From Craspedostauros australis (lineage: Eukaryota): a DNA stretch of 64,000 nt. The notes beneath the pieces were generated by a model. The model saw nothing but the letters and a program-made list of their open reading frames with translations. It made no database searches and had not been told where the DNA came from. The stretch lies in the NCBI GenBank assembly GCA_030167865.1, contig JALAGF010001700.1, forward strand, positions 1 to 64,000. Reading direction: 5' to 3'. Below are positions 21,150-42,035 of the stretch, piece after piece. Numbering within the stretch: the stretch's first letter is position 1; each line of letters starts with the position of its first letter. A program made the translations under genes and the position numbers.

Positions 21150-22670
21150 ATTCTCCTCTGTGCGACGTGATGCAACGCGATGCGATGCAGTGTGATCTGA
21201 CGTGCCTCCACCTCCTTGCGTCTCGGCCAGTTTGTCGATGAGCGGATGCAGACATGTGTGACGCGCTTCGGAGCAAAGGAGCGATGATGACACAATCGAC
21301 TCGTGATGGGAAGAATGCGGCGCGACTTGCGGTGGTGTCGCTCGAACGCAAACGTCAGCCGTGGGTTTTTTTCGGGGAGAGGAATCAAGACTTGTCCAGT
21401 CGTGAACGACAACAACCCATTCATGTGCGGTCATCCGAATTGCGCGATCGTGTCTTCGACGGGCGCAGTCAAGTGTGACCAAGACAGCGAGAGAGAGAGG
21501 GAGAAAGAGGGTGGTGGGAGCGAAACGCGCGGCAAGATCACACATACGGTATGTTGCCCGTTTCTCTGTGCGTTTGTTTTGTGCATGTGCGTGGAACGAC
21601 CACCGTGACGCAAGGCGATTCGACAATGGCGTGGCCGGAGTTGTCGATGCGTGATGGGAATACAAGGAAACGCGTCGCGCTAAGTTGTGTGTGCGTGAGT
21701 GTGTGATTGTGAATGTGGGGTTATCATCGACCCGCAAGAGCGGAGTACGAGTACGATTCGGAGTAGTCTTGGTGCTCATGTCCGTTCACACCGTTTTCAT
21801 GTGTGTGTTCATGTGGGATAACAAGGGCCCGCCATGCGGAGCCTTCGCGTTTGCGTGGAAGGGAACGTGGCGAACGTCATCGACCTGTTCCCCAAAAACC
21901 AAATCGACTCTTTGTGTCGCTGATCATGAAGCACAACCGTCATTGCCACCAGTTCTGATGTCATCATCATCATCATCGCCAACAATGGCCTTTGCATGGA
22001 ATCACCATGAAGAGCACAAGCACAAAGGTGACGATGGAACAGAAAGAAAATCAATCAACCAGATCCAACCAGAATCAATCAACCAAACGGGCCAACGAAG
22101 CGAGAAACGTGACATGGCTTCGCATTATTGGAGACGGAACAAAGGGGATCTACCACACGGATACCGTGGATATCGTATGAATAATCACATGATACGAAGA
22201 ACTATATTCAAGGTACTATTACATCCTACTCTGCTACTCCCACAGACAACGAGTAGGGCGCTCACTTTGGATTGTGCCACGAAGTTCGAACAGGTCGATT
22301 GATGGATGAGGGCGCCAAACACCGGCGTCCGCCTTATGCACATGGGATAGCGAAGATCCACCCGACAAAGATCGTTCGATGTGCCGCTCCGCTTCTGCGT
22401 GTTCGATGAAGCCGAGGAGAGGAGAAGGGGTGCATCTCTCGCTGGCTTGGATGCGTTGCGGCATGCATTGCCATGCGGTTCAACGGGGAGCAGATGTTCT
22501 TGCTCCTGCTCATGGTCGTGCTTGCCCACGCGTCTGTGTTTGCGTTCGACCTACCGGCACCGGCATGGCGATGCTCCAATCCGTTGAGTAGAATGAAGCA
22601 CTCTTCCGATGCTCGGATGCGGCTGCGATTGCGGTTGCGGAAGCATGATACATCGTACCGATTTGCGGGC

Positions 22671-23450
22671 CTAGCCGTGTGCGCGGCGCCGGTATTTTCC
22701 AGTCCTCTTGATGTTGTCTCGGCGGATCGCGGCAATGATCTTGGTGTAGGGCAGACCGTGACCGTAAGTATCGTAGATTGTCTCAATCGCATCCTCCGCC
22801 GACTTTCCATCCTTGATATGTCCCTTGATGCACATCCATGCGACGCTACGGAAGTCGTACAAAGATCTCCTCCCCCTGAGCTGCGCCGGGGTGAAATCCT
22901 TGGCGGGTGTGTTTCCATCGATGCCGACCGTGTACTCCCGCCAGAGATCGTGCAGCGTCTTCACTTTGTGGCTCAACGTTGCCGGCTTGCCCTCGTTCTT
23001 CGTTCTGGTGGGAGGCTCTGTCCGCGATGCATCGTCGTCCTGCGCATGGAAGGAGCGGCGCTTTGATGGGCGTTGAGATGGTCCGGCGGCATGGCAGTGG
23101 CAGGCAGCGCGCTTCGAGACTCGCGCCAACGTTGCGGCGATGCCTTCGAGCTGCGCCTTGACGGTCTTCAGTTCCCGCAGGACGGCGGCAGGGTCGTCGG
23201 CGCTTGCGTCGCGCGGTTCTTCGCAGTTGTCATCGGAGCTGCTATCTTCGCTGTCGTTGAGATCGCTGTCGTTGAGATCGCTGTCGTAGGCGTCGCTGTC
23301 GGAGGCAAACGATTCAGTGTCGCTGTCTAAGTTCTGGTCTTCCTCCTGTTGCACGAGGCTGTGCGATTCGCACGGACTCATCATTGCGCTCATGGTCTTT
23401 TTGTGGTCTGTGTACATGGCGGATCTTGTAATGCGATCTGGTCTTGCCAT
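22671..23450 (-). CDS. Small protein with acidic N-terminus, short coiled coil and C-terminal GCR1_C-like DNA-binding domain
   Basis: The C-terminal segment LSHKVKTLHDLWREYTVGIDGNTPAKDFT..LRG..SLYDFRSVAWMCI...SAEDAIETIYDTYG..LPYTKIIAAIRRD matches the GCR1_C pattern (T-x-x-D-L-W-x-E-[WY]-x-x-G...P). The start ATG is uncertain (23450 or 23417). Confidence 0.7.
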   Translation of the reverse strand: MARPDRITRSAMYTDHKKTMSAMMSPCESHSLVQQEEDQNLDSDTESFASDSDAYDSDLNDSDLNDSEDSSSDDNCEEPRDASADDPAAVLRELKTVKAQLEGIAATLARVSKRAACHCHAAGPSQRPSKRRSFHAQDDDASRTEPPTRTKNEGKPATLSHKVKTLHDLWREYTVGIDGNTPAKDFTPAQLRGRRSLYDFRSVAWMCIKGHIKDGKSAEDAIETIYDTYGHGLPYTKIIAAIRRDNIKRTGKYRRRAHG

Positions 23451-23758
23451 CACAACACGCAGCCGTTGCCTTTCTTGGTCCAACGGCAGCCACAGCGGCA
23501 GTCCACGCGCATGTTCTCGAGGGTCATTGCGACACGTCAACAGCGGTGCCTACAAGACTGTTGTGGGAATGGGAATGGCGACTTCTTGCTCTGCAGTCGT
23601 ATCCCAACGGCGGCGTGGTTGCGGTCGACCAAGAAATCTTTGGCTGGGTGATGTTTCGCGCCATTTTTGTTGTTTCCACCCGAGCAGCTTCTTCAGTACC
23701 ATAGCATCGAATCCAAAGCGAGACAGGCGGCTGCCGAACTGGAATTGGATCGTTTCGC

Positions 23759-23759
23759 C

Positions 23760-23799
<40 letters not shown>

Positions 23800-23800
23800 C
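23759..23800. repeat. (CAA)n microsatellite, about 13 perfect units
   Basis: Read directly from the sequence. Confidence 0.95.
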
Positions 23801-24118
23801 GTCTACCCTACCTTTCATTTGGGCCCGCGTCAACATTTTCACACGCAGATGCACCCGCTGTGTGGAAGAAATTCAATGTTGATGGTTTGGAATCTATATT
23901 TTGTGTTGTATGTAGGTGTAGTTGAGGATGCCATCTGCCTTTGCCGGATCGTACGTATCATGACCTCGCAGATGGAATGCAACCAAGGTGTTGCGCTTCT
24001 TATGCAAATGGTATGCTTGCTTGTTTGCTTTCATTCTTGTTTGCTTGCTCTCTCTCTCTCGCTCGTTGCCGTATTAGTCCCACGACAGCAATCGAAAACG
24101 GTCGCCTGCCGGGTACGC

Positions 24119-25516
24119 TTACAGCATGGAGAACATGCCCAAGGCGACGGAAGCGACGGCAGCGAACATGGTCGTCATCGCAGTGGCAGCAGAGTCGTCT
24201 GGGGCGTCGCCGTATCCAATACCGGCCTCTGGGTCCCAGTAGATCTCGGACGCCATCTGCGCGGCGGCTCCAACGAAGGAGAAGGCGATTTCATCGGAGT
24301 TGCCGTCGGATGTGGCGATGACGGAGATGGTCTCGCCGTCCTCCTTGGCGGTGACATTGGTATTGTTGCTGGTGCTGTTGCCCTCGATGACCTGCGCTGT
24401 GTCGGCCCAGGTGTATTCGCCAAATGGAACGAATCCGACGGTCTCAATGGCATCATCGAAGGTGATCTCCACCTTCGTGGTCTGCTTGGGTCCCTTGGAG
24501 CCGCTGTCGTCCTTCTCCTCCACTTCGATCTTGCGCTCGGATGTGACGGAGCAGATGAGGGCGACGTACGTGTCATTGGCTGCCCACACGTACGAATCGA
24601 GGTCGAAGTCGATCTTCATCTTGTTGGCGGTGATGTTCTGTCGGTCGGCGCGCGAGATGGTGAAGTCGAACTTGGCGACGGTGGCAGTGGCAGTCTCAGT
24701 GCTGGAGATGGAGAACGTTGAAATATCACCCTCGGTCATGACATCGCTGAATTCGCCCCACATGTCGAGCTGCGTGGTCTTGACGATGGTATCGGCCGCC
24801 CAATCGAAGGCCATGGAGTCGGCGTCGGTGGCCGACACGGAGACTTCGTCCGCCTTGCGGTACTCGATGATGCGGTCGAATTCGATCTCGTACTTGGTCT
24901 TGGTCTCAGTCTCGGTCGTGTTGTCGCCCGTTCCTTCTTCAATTTCGTTCTTGTACTCCACCTTGACCTTGAGATCCTCGTTGTCCTTGGAGGACACCTT
25001 GAACTTGATCTCGTCCTTGATCTCGACATCGTCATTCTCTGTCTTGGCCTTGCACTTGAATTCGACCTTGTCACTCTTTCTCTCTGTCAACGCAGGAGTG
25101 GAACGGAGTCGTGCGGAGTGAAGCAGAATCGAATGGAGTCAAGCAGATTGTGTTGTGGAAAAGCAACAAAGTGGAGGGGCATTCTTGCGTGTGAGTTGGT
25201 GTTGGAGGCATACAGAAAGGCATTGCCGGCATTGCCAATGACTGTTCGATCTTAATACCAATGCACCTTATCAACAACATGCACCGTTGCCGTCTGTTGA
25301 AAAGCGCGCCTCGACATGAGTCAACGTACCGACTTCACATTCGCGCTTGGATGGTGCCTTCTTTTTCTTCTCGCTATCCAACCTGCGGCCATTCTTCGAA
25401 GTTGATGGCTTGCGGACACCGCGTGGGCCCTTGGAGGCGGCGGCGGCGGTGCTGTCGGCAAGCAGGACGATGCCTGCGAGCACCAGGATGAGGAGCTTCG
25501 TGATGATGGAGTTCAT
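24119..25516 (-). CDS. Secreted, probably GPI-anchored acidic protein of unknown family, paralog A; 2 exons
   Basis: Exon 1 25516-25330 encodes signal peptide MNSIITKLLILVLAGIVLLADSTAAA, then KGPRGV..GRRL..KKKKAPSKRECEV. Phase-1 intron GTACGT..ACAG spans 25329-25084. Exon 2 25083-24119 ends DDSAATAMTTMFAAVASVALGMFSML. It aligns by eye over its full length with paralog B. Confidence 0.85.
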
Positions 25517-27145
25517 TGCGTGTGTGTGGTGTGTTGTTGCGGAATTGTGGTGGTGGCTGTGAACAGTTGTGTGTTTTGTTTTTTATGAGGAGGATGCGAT
25601 CGTATCCAAACAAGATGGTGTGTTGTGCAAGTGCGATGCGCGATGTTGCGATGTTTCGATGTTGTGTTTGATGTGATGTGTGAGATGCGGCGTTGAGGTG
25701 TTGGCATTGGGCGGTTGCGTATCGGATGAAGTTCGGTTTTTCGTTGGTTGGTTTGGTCGTGTTGTGGACCCTTCTCTCTTTCTTGTTCCATCAACGGTTT
25801 GCCTCCGTTTTGTTGTCCGCCGCGGAGATCGTGTGTGATTGATTGGTTTGCAATGACGTCATGTTGTTGTGTCGCGGTTTTCCCGGTTTTGCCTTCTCGG
25901 CCTCCTCGGATTTGGAGTGCCTTGCTCGCGAACGATGTCGGAACTGACATCATGTGTCGTCGTTTCCGACCGTTGGAGATGCCGACTTCAACCCATTTCT
26001 TCATGTGTGAGGTATCTTTCTCCTTTCTCCTTCCATTCGATTGCGCACAAGCCGCTTCACACTTCGAGACCAGTACCGAATCTCCACCAGCCACAACGAG
26101 CGTGACTAGCGTGACGAGTGTGACGAATGTGTGGTACCAGCCACTCCGGAGATTTAGAGAGAGGACATGGTTGTCAGTACGATCCACTCCGCTCCGACTC
26201 CTAACACTATCCCAACACTGTCACTCTCTGCTCTGTTTTACGAATTGAGTGCACTTGTGGCGCCTCCACATGTGTACTTGTTGATGTCAGAGGGGCCAAT
26301 GACAACTGGATAGTATTGGTATCGTAATGAGTGTGTCCAAGGAGAAAGTGGTGGGGGATGAATTGTCGGAGAGGAGCAGTTTCATACCAGTCAGCACCAC
26401 CAACGTCATCGCGCTTCCTCCATCTTCATCCTCGTCACGCCATGTGGCTTTCGTGACCGTCACATACCCCTTGGTTCGTGCCACTTCTTACCACTTCGGT
26501 GGTGTCACTCTAGAACGATTGACGATCCTGCCGGATCAGCGTCCATAAAACTTGATGCACGATTGATGCGAAGAGGAGGCGGGAGAGAAACAGAAACGGA
26601 GACACATGACAAACAAAGGAGACAGAGACAGAGATCGGAATTTTGAGGTTTGAAGGGAAAGGAGGGAGGGAGAGGATGAACAGAGCGTTCTCACAGAACC
26701 AGTGCGACTTGCACCTGGGATGAGAGGAACGGTTGAAGCTTTGTTTCGACCACGAAGAAAGGAGAGATGAAGAGCAGTGGACGGTGTGTGTTGATCAGAT
26801 GCTGAAACGTTTCTCATCGTTCCCTGCCTCTGTCAATAGATTCGTGCATGTCTTGTCTTGGTGGTTTGCGTGACGTGATTTGATGTCATTGGTTGGTAGG
26901 ATGGATGTGGGTGCTGCTACGGACTACTGTGTGGAATTGAGTACGCGTACGCAGGAGCTGCTCTCTCTGCTTTATTGACACTCGTATCATTCTTTACTAT
27001 CTTTTGCTTTACATTCGCATCGCATCGTTTCGTTTGTCATCTGTCATCAGTATCTATCAAGTGTTGAGAGTCGTGGTGTCGTTTGGCAAACAAAACGATG
27101 GTGCCAAACATGGCAGGACACTCTCAGCGCTCCATGGTATAGCGA

Positions 27146-28853
27146 TTAGACAACAGCCGCCATGACGATGGCTGCACATGTCGCCACGATTCCAAATCGC
27201 ATCGATGTTGCAGAGCTGTTGGGGTCCTTCTTTTGGTAACCGTCATCCTTGTTGTCACCAACGATCGGGTCGCGCCCTGTTGGGGCATCGTCGACGACGA
27301 GGTCGCCGTTGCCGAATCCACTTCTGTCACCTGTGGTGTTGGTGTCGGTGCTGTTCACGTCGGTGCTGTTGGAGTTGTCGACCACGTCATCACCTCCGCC
27401 GCCGATAAGCAGAGGACTGCCGCCGCTGTACCCGACGCCTGCTTCTGGATCCCAGAAGATCTTGCTGGCGAACTTGGCATCGTCGCCCAAGAAGGAGAAC
27501 GCGATCTCGGTGGAGTCGGAATCGGATGGCGATGTTGCCACTACGGAGATGGTGGACGAACCGGCTTCGGCGGTCGTGTCCCACGTGTATGTACCGAATG
27601 GCGTGAATCCGATGGTCTCCACCAAGTCTTCAAAGTCAACGAAGACATCCTTTGGCTTGCGACCGCTGTTGCTGCCGTCATCGTAGTCCACCAGCACCTT
27701 TTGTTCGCTCTTGACGGCGCAGATGAGGGCGACGTTGCTGTCCATCTCCGCCCAAGGGAACATGTCCAGGTCGAAGTCGATCTTCATCTTGTTGGCTGCC
27801 AGGGCGGATTGCTCCGTGCTGGTGTCGGTGATTGTGAACGTGAATGTGGCAACATCGTCGTCTGTGGACACGGAGAACGATGTCGTGTTCCCCTTCGTTT
27901 CCACCGGACTCATGTCGTTCCACGAGCTCATGGTCCATTCACGCACCACGATGTCATTCTCCCAATCGTATCCAAGGTTGCTGTCGTCGGCGGATGCCTT
28001 TTGGTACTCCACAACGCGATCGAACTCGACTTCGAACTTTGTCTTGCTCTCGGTGGTTTCCGAGCTGTCAGCGTCAGCCTCATCATCGGTCGTCGGGAGT
28101 TGCTGCTTGTACTCGATCTTGACCTTCAGCGCCTCTCCTTCCTTGGACTTCACATCGAACTTGATCTCATCGGAAATACCGGTGATCTCATCCTCAGATT
28201 CGGACTCGCACTTGACGGAGATTTCTCGCTCCTTGCTCTCTGCTCCAGTATTGCGCCGTGATTGTTTCGCATGGTATTGATTTGCATTGTTGTGTGCGGC
28301 GACGAGGTGTAGCGAAATGGTGAAGCATGAGGGTGTGTTAGAAAAGAGGCTTGTTGTCACTTGCATTCGGAGTCTTCATCGCTAGGCACAGCTCGGCACA
28401 ATGTTTCAACGAATCATGCATCCTGCATTATGTACCACCCCAAGCAATGCCGCAACAGCGACATCACCCAATCTCACACTGTTGCAATCGTACAATGTAG
28501 CGCAACGTACTGGTCTTGCAACTGCGCTTGGACGGACCGCCCTCCTTGAACGCCTCTGTCTTCTTCTTCTTGCTCTCTTTCGATTTCTTTGATTCCTTGC
28601 TTTTCTTGCTCTCCTTCGACTTCTTGTCGCCCTTGCTTTTCTTATCCTCCTTGGCCTTGCTATCATCGCCTCCTCCCGTGGTCCTGTCACCGTCCGTTCC
28701 CTTGTCTGCCGACTTCAGCACGCGGTCGAGACTTCTGGCAGCCGCGGCGTTGTTCACACCACGTGGACCACGCTTTCCGAAGACGCATTGAGCATTGAGG
28801 AGGAGTGCCAGCAGCAGTATCCGCACGAGGTTTCGAATTGGTGACGACGTCAT
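27146..28853 (-). CDS. Secreted, probably GPI-anchored acidic protein of unknown family, paralog B, with (KKSKES)n segment; 2 exons
   Basis: Exon 1 28853-28511 encodes signal peptide ..RILLLALLLNAQCVFG, then KRGPRGV..RSLDRVL..KKSKGDKKSKESKKSKESKKSKESKKKK..PSKRSCKT. Phase-1 intron GTACGT..GCAG spans 28510-28240 at the same position as in paralog A. Exon 2 28239-27146 ends NSSATSMRFGIVATCAAIVMAAVV. Confidence 0.85.
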
Positions 28854-30122: not shown

Positions 30123-31019
30123 TCACTTTATGCGAAGCTGCTCGGCCGCGATGGCCTTCATGGTCGACTTGAGCTTGCCGCCCAGCTCCTTCGCCACCAG
30201 CTCCAGAAGCTCGGGCTCCGACGACGCCTGCGACTCCAGATCCTGCTTGATGCCTGCGACCACTTGTTGAAAGAGCTCGGCCTCCACATCCAGCTCGGCA
30301 AAGACGCTCTGCAACCTGTCCAGGACGGGAGCCGCCTCAGCGCCACCGGCGCTCTGCGCTTTGTTGAAGTCGTCGATGGACTTGAGCTGCGGTCCCCCGT
30401 TGAGCTGCTCGCGCAGATCCGTGCCGCCGAGGAAGGTCTTGGTCTGCGTGTCATCCTTCGTCTCGCTGCACGTGCCCGTCTCGCATCCCGGAATGTTCTG
30501 AAAGTCCTCCCAGTCGTAGGCCTTCTTGTTGGGACAGCAGGCCCAGTACTTGGCGGTCTCGTGGAAAACGGGCGGCATCTTGTGGTACTGGCATTTTGGA
30601 TACGGACCACCTTTGGGAAAGCGCTTCTTGCATCCGAAGTGCGTGCATGCCGCCGTGCTGGCCAACTCCTGCTGCCTCTGCGCCTCGGCCTCCTTGCGCT
30701 TGTCGTCCTGCATCGCCTTCGTCTCGCTGGCACCGTGGCAGACGTAGATGTCGCCGCGATCGGGCACCACCTCCACGACGACGTCGTCGCTGCACAGCGG
30801 CATCAGCTCTGTCTTTTCGGAGGTCGTGGGCTTGCGGATGGCGAGATGGACATCGGCGAGCACCAGAGCGTTGCTCTCGAACTTGGGATTGTAGAACTCC
30901 ACGAACTGCTCCAGCAGCTGCGATGTGGGCCCCGTCTTCCAGGACCTTGGCAGAGTGATCTTCATCGATTTGTGCAGCGACGCATCATCGGTGTCTTCGT
31001 AGTGAATCAGGACCTTCAT
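30123..31019 (-). CDS. CHORD (Cys/His-rich Zn-binding) domain protein, single CHORD
   Basis: CTHFGC-x12-CQYH-x14-CC...WEDFQNIPGC, with PVFHETAKYWACC typical of CHORD; strong GC3 codon bias. Confidence 0.88.
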   Translation of the reverse strand: MKVLIHYEDTDDASLHKSMKITLPRSWKTGPTSQLLEQFVEFYNPKFESNALVLADVHLAIRKPTTSEKTELMPLCSDDVVVEVVPDRGDIYVCHGASETKAMQDDKRKEAEAQRQQELASTAACTHFGCKKRFPKGGPYPKCQYHKMPPVFHETAKYWACCPNKKAYDWEDFQNIPGCETGTCSETKDDTQTKTFLGGTDLREQLNGGPQLKSIDDFNKAQSAGGAEAAPVLDRLQSVFAELDVEAELFQQVVAGIKQDLESQASSEPELLELVAKELGGKLKSTMKAIAAEQLRIK

Positions 31020-40127: not shown

Positions 40128-42035
40128 TCACCACTGCTGCTCGAATGTGGCGAAGGTGGACTTCTGGGTGGGCGGAGGACACGACTGAAGCTCCTGCACG
40201 AAAATGTCAATCTTGGATTTGGTGATGTTGGGCATGACGACGACGTGGGCCATGTCCTTTTCGCACGCCAGCTGCCACCGTCGGATGAATTCCTGGGAGG
40301 AGGGACGCTGCAAGATCACCGTGTTGCCGTACGTGTTGTACCGGCAAGGAACGCCGACGCGCTGGAGCTGTTCGTAGAGGTACTGCGCGGTGGACATGCA
40401 GTGGTGGACGTCGTCGGCGATGCCGGACATGCCCTTCTTGCGCAGGCTGTACCAGAGGTAGAGGGCCGCCTGGCCGTTGCGGCTGCCGAGGATGGTGGAA
40501 TCGACGCTGTTCAGGTAGTCGATGTGATGCTCGATCACGTGCTCCTTGCGGCAGATGGCGATGCCGCACGGCATGGGGCAGCCCAGCATCTTGTGCCCGC
40601 TCACCGCGATGGAATCGATCGGTTGCGAATGGAAGGAAAGGTCGGGCGTCACATCGTCGGAGAGGAAGGGCGCGAAGAGGCCGTACAGAGCGCCGTCGCA
40701 ATGGATGTGATAACGCTCCCTCGGTATCTGGTTGCGCTCCATGATGCCCACGATGCGATCCAGATTGTCGACGGCACCCTTGACGGTGGTGCCGATGTTC
40801 GCATTGATGATGACCTCCTTGTCAGGATTGGCCAGTATTTGCTGCTCCAGGATCTCGTAATCGATTTCGCCATTGGGCAAGGTGGGGACCTTGTTGCATT
40901 CCATGCGGTAGTAGGTGGCGGCCTTGAAGAGGCTGTAGTGCGACTCCTCGCTGGTGTACAAAATGCCTTCGGGGAAGCGTTCCCGTGCCAGCAGGATGCC
41001 ATGCAGGTTGCCCTCTGTGCCACTGGACGTCACGTAGCCCCAGTAGTCGTCCGGCTCGCGGAAGTCCCACAGCTTGGCGAAGAAGTCGATGACGGCGCAT
41101 TCGAACTGCCGGGAATGCACGGCGTAGTTGGAGGCGATGTAGGGATCGCCGAGGTTGTTGATGGAATACTTCATGAATTCGTACAGCTCCGAATGGTCGT
41201 AGCTCAGGTTGTACGGGTAGCCGAAATGCAGCGACGAATTGGATTGCAGAAGCTTGTCGTACGACTGCAGAATCGCTGTCTCGTCCGGGGCCATGGACAG
41301 CTCCTGGTGATCGTGACTTTCATGTGTGCGTTCATCCTGCGGACCGCGTGGCGTGATCGCATTCGACGACGCGGAATGTCCAATTCTCGGCGCTGACCGG
41401 GCCGAACCATCGGCACGAAGATAGGCGTCGTCGATCGGTATCTGAACAGCCTGTGGCGAAAGGTTGTCGTCGTCGATGGGGTTGATCAGATTGTCGTGGA
41501 CCTGATCAGATCTTGCTCCCCAGGCATCAAATGCGGGCGCCGCGGAGTTCATCTGAAGGGTGGTTCTCCTTGCCTCGTTGATGGAAGCTCGCAGTTCGGT
41601 GCGGCGTTGGTCGTCAACACCGTTGCCGCTGGTTTTGAAGTTGCCGATCCGAGACGATGCGGCTGTTCGGTTGCTGGCATCCTGTTCCGCACGTTCGTAG
41701 GCGTCGTCGCCGTCCGAGTCTTCCTCCAGCGACGCCATGGAGGCAGACTCGCGTCGCTGGTCGTTGATTGGAAGCAGCAGCTGGTGCTTCAGGTTGTCGA
41801 GGTCGTTCTGCAGCTCGTTCTGGAGGCTGTGCGTGTTCTGCTGGAACGAGGACTTGGACATGGTGGTGTACATGTACTGCAGCTTGCAGTTGGACATGAC
41901 CTGCGATGGCGGCGCAGCCGCAGTCAGAGTTGAGGAAGCGCACACCAATGACGACGACAGCCTGCGTTCCACGATGGCTGGATAAGCGCGGCGGGAGCTT
42001 CGCTGCAGTTGCTTGCGTAGGTGATGGGACATCAT
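40128..42035 (-). CDS. Group II PLP-dependent decarboxylase, serine decarboxylase / histidine decarboxylase type, with long N-terminal extension
   Basis: HFGYPYNL, INNLGDPYIASNYAVHSRQFE, YWGYVTSSGTEGNLHGIL, HIHCDGAL, the PLP-lysine motif SGHKMLGCPMPCG, and GSRNG. First ATG at 42035. Confidence 0.92.
   Translation of the reverse strand: MMSHHLRKQLQRSSRRAYPAIVERRLSSSLVCASSTLTAAAPPSQVMSNCKLQYMYTTMSKSSFQQNTHSLQNELQNDLDNLKHQLLLPINDQRRESASMASLEEDSDGDDAYERAEQDASNRTAASSRIGNFKTSGNGVDDQRRTELRASINEARRTTLQMNSAAPAFDAWGARSDQVHDNLINPIDDDNLSPQAVQIPIDDAYLRADGSARSAPRIGHSASSNAITPRGPQDERTHESHDHQELSMAPDETAILQSYDKLLQSNSSLHFGYPYNLSYDHSELYEFMKYSINNLGDPYIASNYAVHSRQFECAVIDFFAKLWDFREPDDYWGYVTSSGTEGNLHGILLARERFPEGILYTSEESHYSLFKAATYYRMECNKVPTLPNGEIDYEILEQQILANPDKEVIINANIGTTVKGAVDNLDRIVGIMERNQIPRERYHIHCDGALYGLFAPFLSDDVTPDLSFHSQPIDSIAVSGHKMLGCPMPCGIAICRKEHVIEHHIDYLNSVDSTILGSRNGQAALYLWYSLRKKGMSGIADDVHHCMSTAQYLYEQLQRVGVPCRYNTYGNTVILQRPSSQEFIRRWQLACEKDMAHVVVMPNITKSKIDIFVQELQSCPPPTQKSTFATFEQQW

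Follow-up and report, generated by a model that had tools for sequence, protein, structure and literature searches.

Two head-to-tail paralogs on the minus strand of a 64,000-nucleotide stretch of Craspedostauros australis DNA (contig JALAGF010001700.1, positions 1 to 64,000; the window) encode proteins of 383 aa (gene A) and 478 aa (gene B), each from two exons. Their core domain has homologs in archaea, and its predicted fold is that of the lysosomal protein GLMP. According to PMC11252000, GLMP spans the membrane once, as a type I protein, and shields and stabilises MFSD1 in the lysosome. We give an even chance to the reading that A and B are nonenzymatic, glycosylated surface shields, which would be anchored by glycosylphosphatidylinositol (GPI) and shed into the medium. 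This reading draws on the GLMP precedent, on the repeated membrane tethering of the domain, and on secretome data for a Phaeodactylum homolog.

Predicted fold and archaeal relatives of the core domain

The AlphaFold (AF2) model of A, with a predicted template-modelling (TM) score (pTM) of 0.74, is all-β over residues 58 to 355. In a Foldseek search of the PDB, the A core matched GLMP best (6nyq, E 3.3e-7; 8r8q, E 6.4e-6). VIA-align also placed GLMP first (Z 17.9, root-mean-square deviation 4.5, 236 residues aligned), and its next match was at Z 12.3. Further matches, at Z 10 to 12 and 5 to 11% identity, were to supersandwich domains found in glycosidases, lyases, and YidC. GLMP was again best among the named structure rows of the Atlas, at a TM score of 0.68, which is below that tool's naming bar; a second Atlas query gave no usable match. 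A viral fold library returned two weak matches (E ~5e-4 to 9e-4), and a PDB sequence search with two profiles found nothing significant. Homodimer prediction of the A core scored 0.00, which is no evidence in either direction. The model of an archaeal homolog had the same top structural matches, with GLMP first. We predict a GLMP-type β-supersandwich for the A/B core, and on these models the unnamed family is a GPI-type variant of the known GLMP fold.

The sequence-only reading of this DNA had recognised no named family in the core and had proposed a structural comparison. The comparison put the luminal β-sandwich of GLMP on top, and no Pfam family, PF15065 (NCU-G1) included, passed its cut-off on either exon of A or B or on 120 homologs. 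NCU-G1 matched 3 of 20 distant homologs weakly and below cut-off (E 5.7e-4 to 0.015). A PF15065 search of the C. australis genome itself gave no match, and the controls were equally silent. A and B share with GLMP/NCU-G1 (PF15065; 6NYQ, 8R8Q) the predicted β-supersandwich across the core, a signal peptide, several N-glycosylation sites, and, by prediction, C-terminal membrane attachment. However, they are 11 to 12% identical to GLMP, carry an RXL propeptide, have a homolog in the medium, and end in a GPI-type tail, whereas GLMP has a transmembrane helix and a cytosolic tail.

With a threshold of E ≤ 0.001, a profile search yielded 584 representatives, of which 150 were listed. The named diatom members came from five raphid pennate genera and one Bacillariaceae metagenome-assembled genome, with Eucampia antarctica as a distant member. 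Eight archaeal-type proteins stood among the full-length matches (E 1e-17 to 1e-26). HHalign matched the diatom alignment to the archaeal one at 99.92% (E 5e-35, 245 columns). The archaeal profile recovered A and B at ~1e-27, whereas reversed controls scored ~0 bits or lower. Of the 41 archaeal genomes searched (around G001), 37 carry the domain, often as adjoining gene pairs. Five such genomes were tested for a eukaryote-like actin; four encode a complete one and the other only a fragment, and from this the carriers are likely to be Asgard archaea. Bathyarchaeota and Thermoplasmatota clusters in the Atlas also carry the domain; therefore, it is not Asgard-specific. The sequence-only reading had proposed a diatom cell-wall or silica-interface family. 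A family specific to diatoms or to silica is not supported, given the predicted GLMP-type fold and the archaeal homologs.

One archaeal homolog scored above the NCBIfam cut-off for Loki-CTERM, and two matched Heimdall-CTERM below cut-off. The NCBIfam models 'SAR2788' and YidC were rejected for the archaeal homologs as weak matches far under cut-off. The database protein of gene A (P0001) had no NCBIfam match, CTERM sorting tail included. A and B share with the Loki-/Heimdall-CTERM proteins (NF033507, NF045529) a homologous core, a signal peptide, a low-complexity charged N terminus, a membrane anchor, and the frequent arrangement of genes in adjacent pairs. However, the archaeal N-terminal tract is acidic and that of A and B is basic. 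The archaeal proteins also lack RXL enrichment and the Cys pair of strands 1 and 2, and they end in a transmembrane segment with a basic tail.

A quick, unrooted tree placed the archaeal rows in a single clade beside divergent eukaryote-type rows. This tree omits a third C. australis paralog, which is included in a separate paralog tree. Because the trees are quick and unrooted, we claim no transfer direction or donor. Through this sequence bridge, a shield of the lysosomal membrane is connected with surface proteins of archaea, and the connection bears on the idea that the coat of the lysosomal lumen derived from a cell-surface coat. A link between GLMP and archaea may already be in print (the literature at large was not searched for it); GLMP is not mentioned in the main text of an Asgard preprint on structures.

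Paired archaeal homologs adjoin the same unannotated gene of ~275 aa in all three of loci L012, L013, and L014 (genomes G035, G022, and G040). A probable regulator and a membrane gene lie near the pair in two of these three loci.

Predicted membrane tethering, secretion, and candidate functions

Signal-peptide and GPI calls were made with hydropathy heuristics. In both A and B, the C terminus is the hydrophobic stretch itself, without a cytosolic tail. Among 262 family proteins fetched, the end motif WDPxxG was present in 238 and a hydrophobic tail in 228. Outside the archaea, 213 of 220 hydrophobic tails had two residues or fewer beyond the hydrophobic stretch, and 5 of 220 had a cytosolic tail. 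All eight archaeal homologs examined had a transmembrane segment and a basic tail. An omega-like small-residue triplet occurred in 187 of the 213 tails, against 154 ± 6 in 500 shuffles, and the genome gave matches over cut-off to the GPI transamidase subunits Gpi16 and PIG-U. The tail statistics agree with the GPI-type tail described earlier from the sequence. With a transmembrane/CTERM tail in archaea and a GPI-type tail in diatoms, the same domain therefore appears to be membrane tethered via different anchors.

The earlier description of A and B as secreted and RXL-bearing was also supported. In 28 proteins the signal peptide and the first strand could both be recognised, giving full-length propeptides; 16 of these carry RXL, compared with 5.9 ± 2.1 (maximum 14) in 1000 shuffles. 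Across the family, the segment after RXL is Lys/Ser-rich, acidic, or absent. The Lys-rich stretch ascribed to both paralogs is real in B, with five KxxK motifs, but in A it is essentially KKKK, with no KxxK. Acidity of the core did not hold as a conserved trait, since the Eucampia homolog has 14.5% Asp plus Glu versus 14.8% Lys plus Arg. N-x-S/T sites number six in A and five in B.

When internal loops are included, R[RK]L motifs number 71 in 254 non-archaeal proteins, against 10.8 ± 3.4 in shuffles, and 1 in 8 archaeal proteins; examples family-wide are P0115, P0072, P0079, and P0248. On this basis, maturation may involve nicking of the GLMP-type fold in several of its loops.

As a silica or wall scaffold, the GPI-tethered protein would display a modified Lys/Ser segment next to its acidic fold, either at the wall or within the silica deposition vesicle. 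The available parts of PMC5525289 and PMC4557024 report the RXL motif in silaffins, cingulins, and silicanin-1 (Sin1). B has 8 Lys in 14 residues along with its KxxK motifs, and it sits on a long branch (1.21, versus 0.36 for A). Homologs P0191, P0196, and P0197 carry KSGK/KSSK tracts, and coral SAARPs, judged by eye, may use the same fold in mineralisation. Judging from its Lys/Ser-rich tract, B could have a wall or silica role. However, A has no KxxK, acidity and the Lys tract vary within the family, and the domain occurs in the 37 archaeal genomes. The features common to A and B and the known silica proteins are the signal peptide and RXL, and in B only the KxxK tract. A and B have none of the features described for Sin1, namely an NQ-rich domain with 18 Cys, a transmembrane helix, and a cytosolic tail. 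Silaffins are random coil, whereas A and B have a predicted all-β domain of ~300 residues, so there is no common folded domain. We consider a silica scaffold unlikely, and if it applies, it would apply chiefly to B.

Data for a Phaeodactylum homolog bear on the same question. B7FZV5/Phatr3_J46046 is 46% identical to A. In PMC8977783, the lists of secreted proteins (100,000 g supernatant) include it for all three morphotypes: fusiform, triradiate, and oval. It was also detected in cell extracts by mass spectrometry, with 7 peptides in the isobaric-tag (iTRAQ) table. It was among 38 proteins down in oval (silicified) cells, a morphotype comparison confounded by the culture of oval cells at 10% seawater. 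The Si-response check proposed from the sequence was run on this homolog only, and the 223 genes given as Si-responsive in Table S1 of PMC2758714 (fusiform strain) do not include it. Its presence in the medium of both non-silicified morphotypes, its lower level in oval cells, and its absence from that list speak weakly against a silica role. The homolog lacks the Lys/Ser tract of B and is therefore no test of B.

The string '46046' was not found in the supplements of PMC6617621, PMC7283521, and PMC6156597, which is uninformative, as the completeness and ID formats of these files may differ. The available text of a C. australis trail preprint describes eight proteins, none of the A/B architecture. 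A literature search for the accessions gave one paper, in which the homolog is listed as a predicted protein. The database N terminus of B7FZV5 (P0292) seems wrong; in the accessible proteomics supplement its SignalP columns are blank, another column reads 'signal peptide', and its origin is given as 'Dinos'. An unnamed and widespread family of probable diatom surface proteins gains a predicted fold, relatives, and a test organism (Phaeodactylum, with Phatr3_J46046).

The same secretome data are consistent with a glycan-binding tether, in which the supersandwich would bind wall or extracellular polysaccharide and thereby hold mucilage or the organic casing at the membrane. The homolog is commoner in organic-walled fusiform cells in the available tables of PMC8977783, and the next-closest folds after GLMP are glycosidase and polysaccharide lyase domains. 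The family-invariant E136, D221, and D346, with near-invariant aromatics, could form a site. However, this site is putative, and matches at Z 10 to 12 with 5 to 11% identity show no function. We regard a glycan tether as unlikely. A functional equivalent of GLMP, acting as a transporter chaperone in the vacuole or lysosome, would make the medium signal one of leakage. GLMP is the best structural match, the 5 of 220 non-archaeal homologs noted above retain a transmembrane helix and a cytosolic tail, and the homolog was found in cell extracts. However, A and B lack a cytosolic sorting tail, in contrast to the single-pass type I GLMP, and the homolog was in the medium of all three morphotypes. 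We consider a vacuolar role less likely still.

If A and B are instead shed surface shields, the signal peptide would be removed on secretion, five or six N-glycans would be attached, and GPI would replace the hydrophobic tail, at S360 in A or at N455/S456 in B. The propeptide would be cut at RXL, so that the mature protein keeps a short basic segment. Its sandwich, flat and glycosylated, would then cover and stabilise neighbouring plasma-membrane proteins, as GLMP does with MFSD1, although the client is putative. Cleavage of the anchor would shed the protein into the medium. Several points weigh against this model. A and B are 11 to 12% identical to GLMP and have no NCU-G1 match in Pfam. Likeness of fold shows no function, as glycosidases, lyases, and YidC share the supersandwich (Z 10 to 12). 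Only 40 to 50% of the secreted proteins listed in the accessible part of PMC8977783 have a signal peptide, and therefore cell leakage is possible. The signal-peptide and GPI calls are heuristic. The gene structure, the splicing of A, the homology to membrane-anchored proteins of archaea, and the mass-spectrometric detection of the Phaeodactylum homolog in cells and medium are established, and the fold is predicted. We infer the location, GPI attachment, shield function, and client of A and B, and the function of the family, from the lines of evidence above.

Structure of the gene pair and third paralog

Two head-to-tail paralogs with the motifs named in the sequence-only reading, and with a phase-1 intron at an identical position, were all found in the sequence (Table 1). 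One contig of run X1 skips exactly the 246 nt of the gene A intron (25084-25329), and database protein P0001 (labelled Craspedostauros australis) is identical to the spliced 383-aa product. X1 was the only run found with matching contigs, and it is not on record as RNA. For gene B, X1 contigs covered only the 3' end (27611-26987), with the junction outside. Of the two splice junctions to be checked, that of A was therefore confirmed, and that of B is predicted. The pair had been called unannotated; the genes are real, but UniRef already has an entry for the product of A, where it is uncharacterised.

Table 1. Features of genes A and B, in window coordinates
Feature	Position	Strand	Content and basis
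Gene A exon 1	25330..25516	-	Signal peptide, GPRGV, RRL (25387-25379), KKKK, start of predicted fold strand 1
Gene A intron	25084..25329	-	246 nt, GT..AG, phase 1; spliced contig and P0001 sequence
Gene A exon 2	24119..25083	-	Predicted GLMP-fold core extending to ~residue 355, followed by a GPI-type tail
Gene A predicted GPI signal	24122..24193	-	S360-A-A, hydrophobic end, zero cytosolic residues; sequence and family statistics
Gene B exon 1	28511..28853	-	Signal peptide, GPRGV, RSL/RVL (28736-28716), Lys/Ser tract, PSKRSC
Gene B Lys/Ser tract	28560..28658	-	Residues 66-98; up to 8 Lys per 14 residues; exon 1 with 5 KxxK
Gene B intron (predicted)	28240..28510	-	271 nt, GT..AG, phase 1; position and phase as in A and third paralog
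Gene B exon 2	27146..28239	-	Predicted GLMP-fold core, ~70-aa acidic/N-glycosylation-site stalk, GPI-type tail; 3' end contig-covered
Gene B predicted GPI signal	27149..27220	-	N455-S-S-A, then hydrophobic end; from sequence

A genome search found three copies. The third paralog, on contig C1711 (G000:C1711, L002 762-2601), has its intron at the identical place and phase 1, and it carries two RRL motifs and a Thr/Ser/Asn-rich tract. The exon-2 product of A is 42% identical to that of B, 54% to that of the third paralog, and 57.5% to that of Stauroneis. Because B lies on a long branch, either the tandem pair is old or B diverged fast. The Cys of PSKRxC sits within the first β-strand of the folded domain (E58-65 in the A model), and therefore the intron falls within that domain. 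The common intron position stood, but the earlier placement of the intron ahead of the conserved domain did not, since strand 1 starts in exon 1. Two other models of gene B were rejected. A single exon from the ATG at 28366 would drop the first strand and the conserved Cys. An in-frame acceptor further upstream, at 28359, would put 40 extra residues between strands 1 and 2.

Coral skeletal proteins and neighbouring features

The coral proteins SAARP1-3/CARP4-5 share with A and B a signal peptide, an acidic composition, and a hydrophobic C terminus. SAARP is described as a predicted β-sandwich, and the available part of a preprint compares its fold to immunoglobulin/fibronectin type III domains. 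By eye, the SAARP1, SAARP2, and acidic skeletal organic matrix protein (SOMP) sequences in a supplement of PMC3748352 have colinear counterparts of the three family anchors (in SAARP1, LDSIEE, KFNIKISNWDF, and VNIDP). An anchor pattern built from the alignment was matched by 186 of the 247 family proteins tested, and by 0 of 49,400 shuffles. By eye, SAARP1 and acidic SOMP fit the pattern, and SAARP2 does not fit at the final anchor. Two positions of the pattern had been broadened with knowledge of the coral sequences, and so it is a lead and not a test. The coral proteins differ in their long Asp tracts, in Asn at the invariant D221, and in Ile/Val at W345; the homology is unscored and judged by eye. 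A search with the distant alignment found only 4 proteins, with no coral sequence among them. A literature search pairing CARP/SAARP with diatoms gave nothing relevant, and a mention of diatom CARP homologs in an eLife coral genomics paper was not borne out, as 'diatom' appears 0 times in its main text.

We think it somewhat probable that one ancient coat domain underlies the CTERM-tethered archaeal proteins, lysosomal GLMP, the GPI-anchored diatom family, and the coral SAARP/CARP4 core. We take the Dictyostelium ComC supersandwich to be a possible relative. It is doubtful that this superfamily was recruited twice to biomineralisation, with Asp tracts and aragonite in corals and the silaffin-like Lys/Ser tract and silica in paralog B. 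If the coral link is true, the most abundant coral skeletal protein family gets a structural ancestry, and mineral recruitment becomes testable via charged-tract swaps on one scaffold.

Within the window, a (CAA)n microsatellite (23752-23809) lies just past the 3' end of the gene A transcript contig. Beyond it, on the minus strand, an open reading frame at 22671-23450 matches GCR1_C barely above cut-off (E 2.5e-5), with contig cover over 22000-22796; we take it to be possibly transposon-derived. A CHORD-domain protein (30123-31019, minus strand) is encoded immediately upstream of gene B. An open reading frame at 40128-42035 (minus strand) resembles, by eye, a group II pyridoxal phosphate-dependent decarboxylase.

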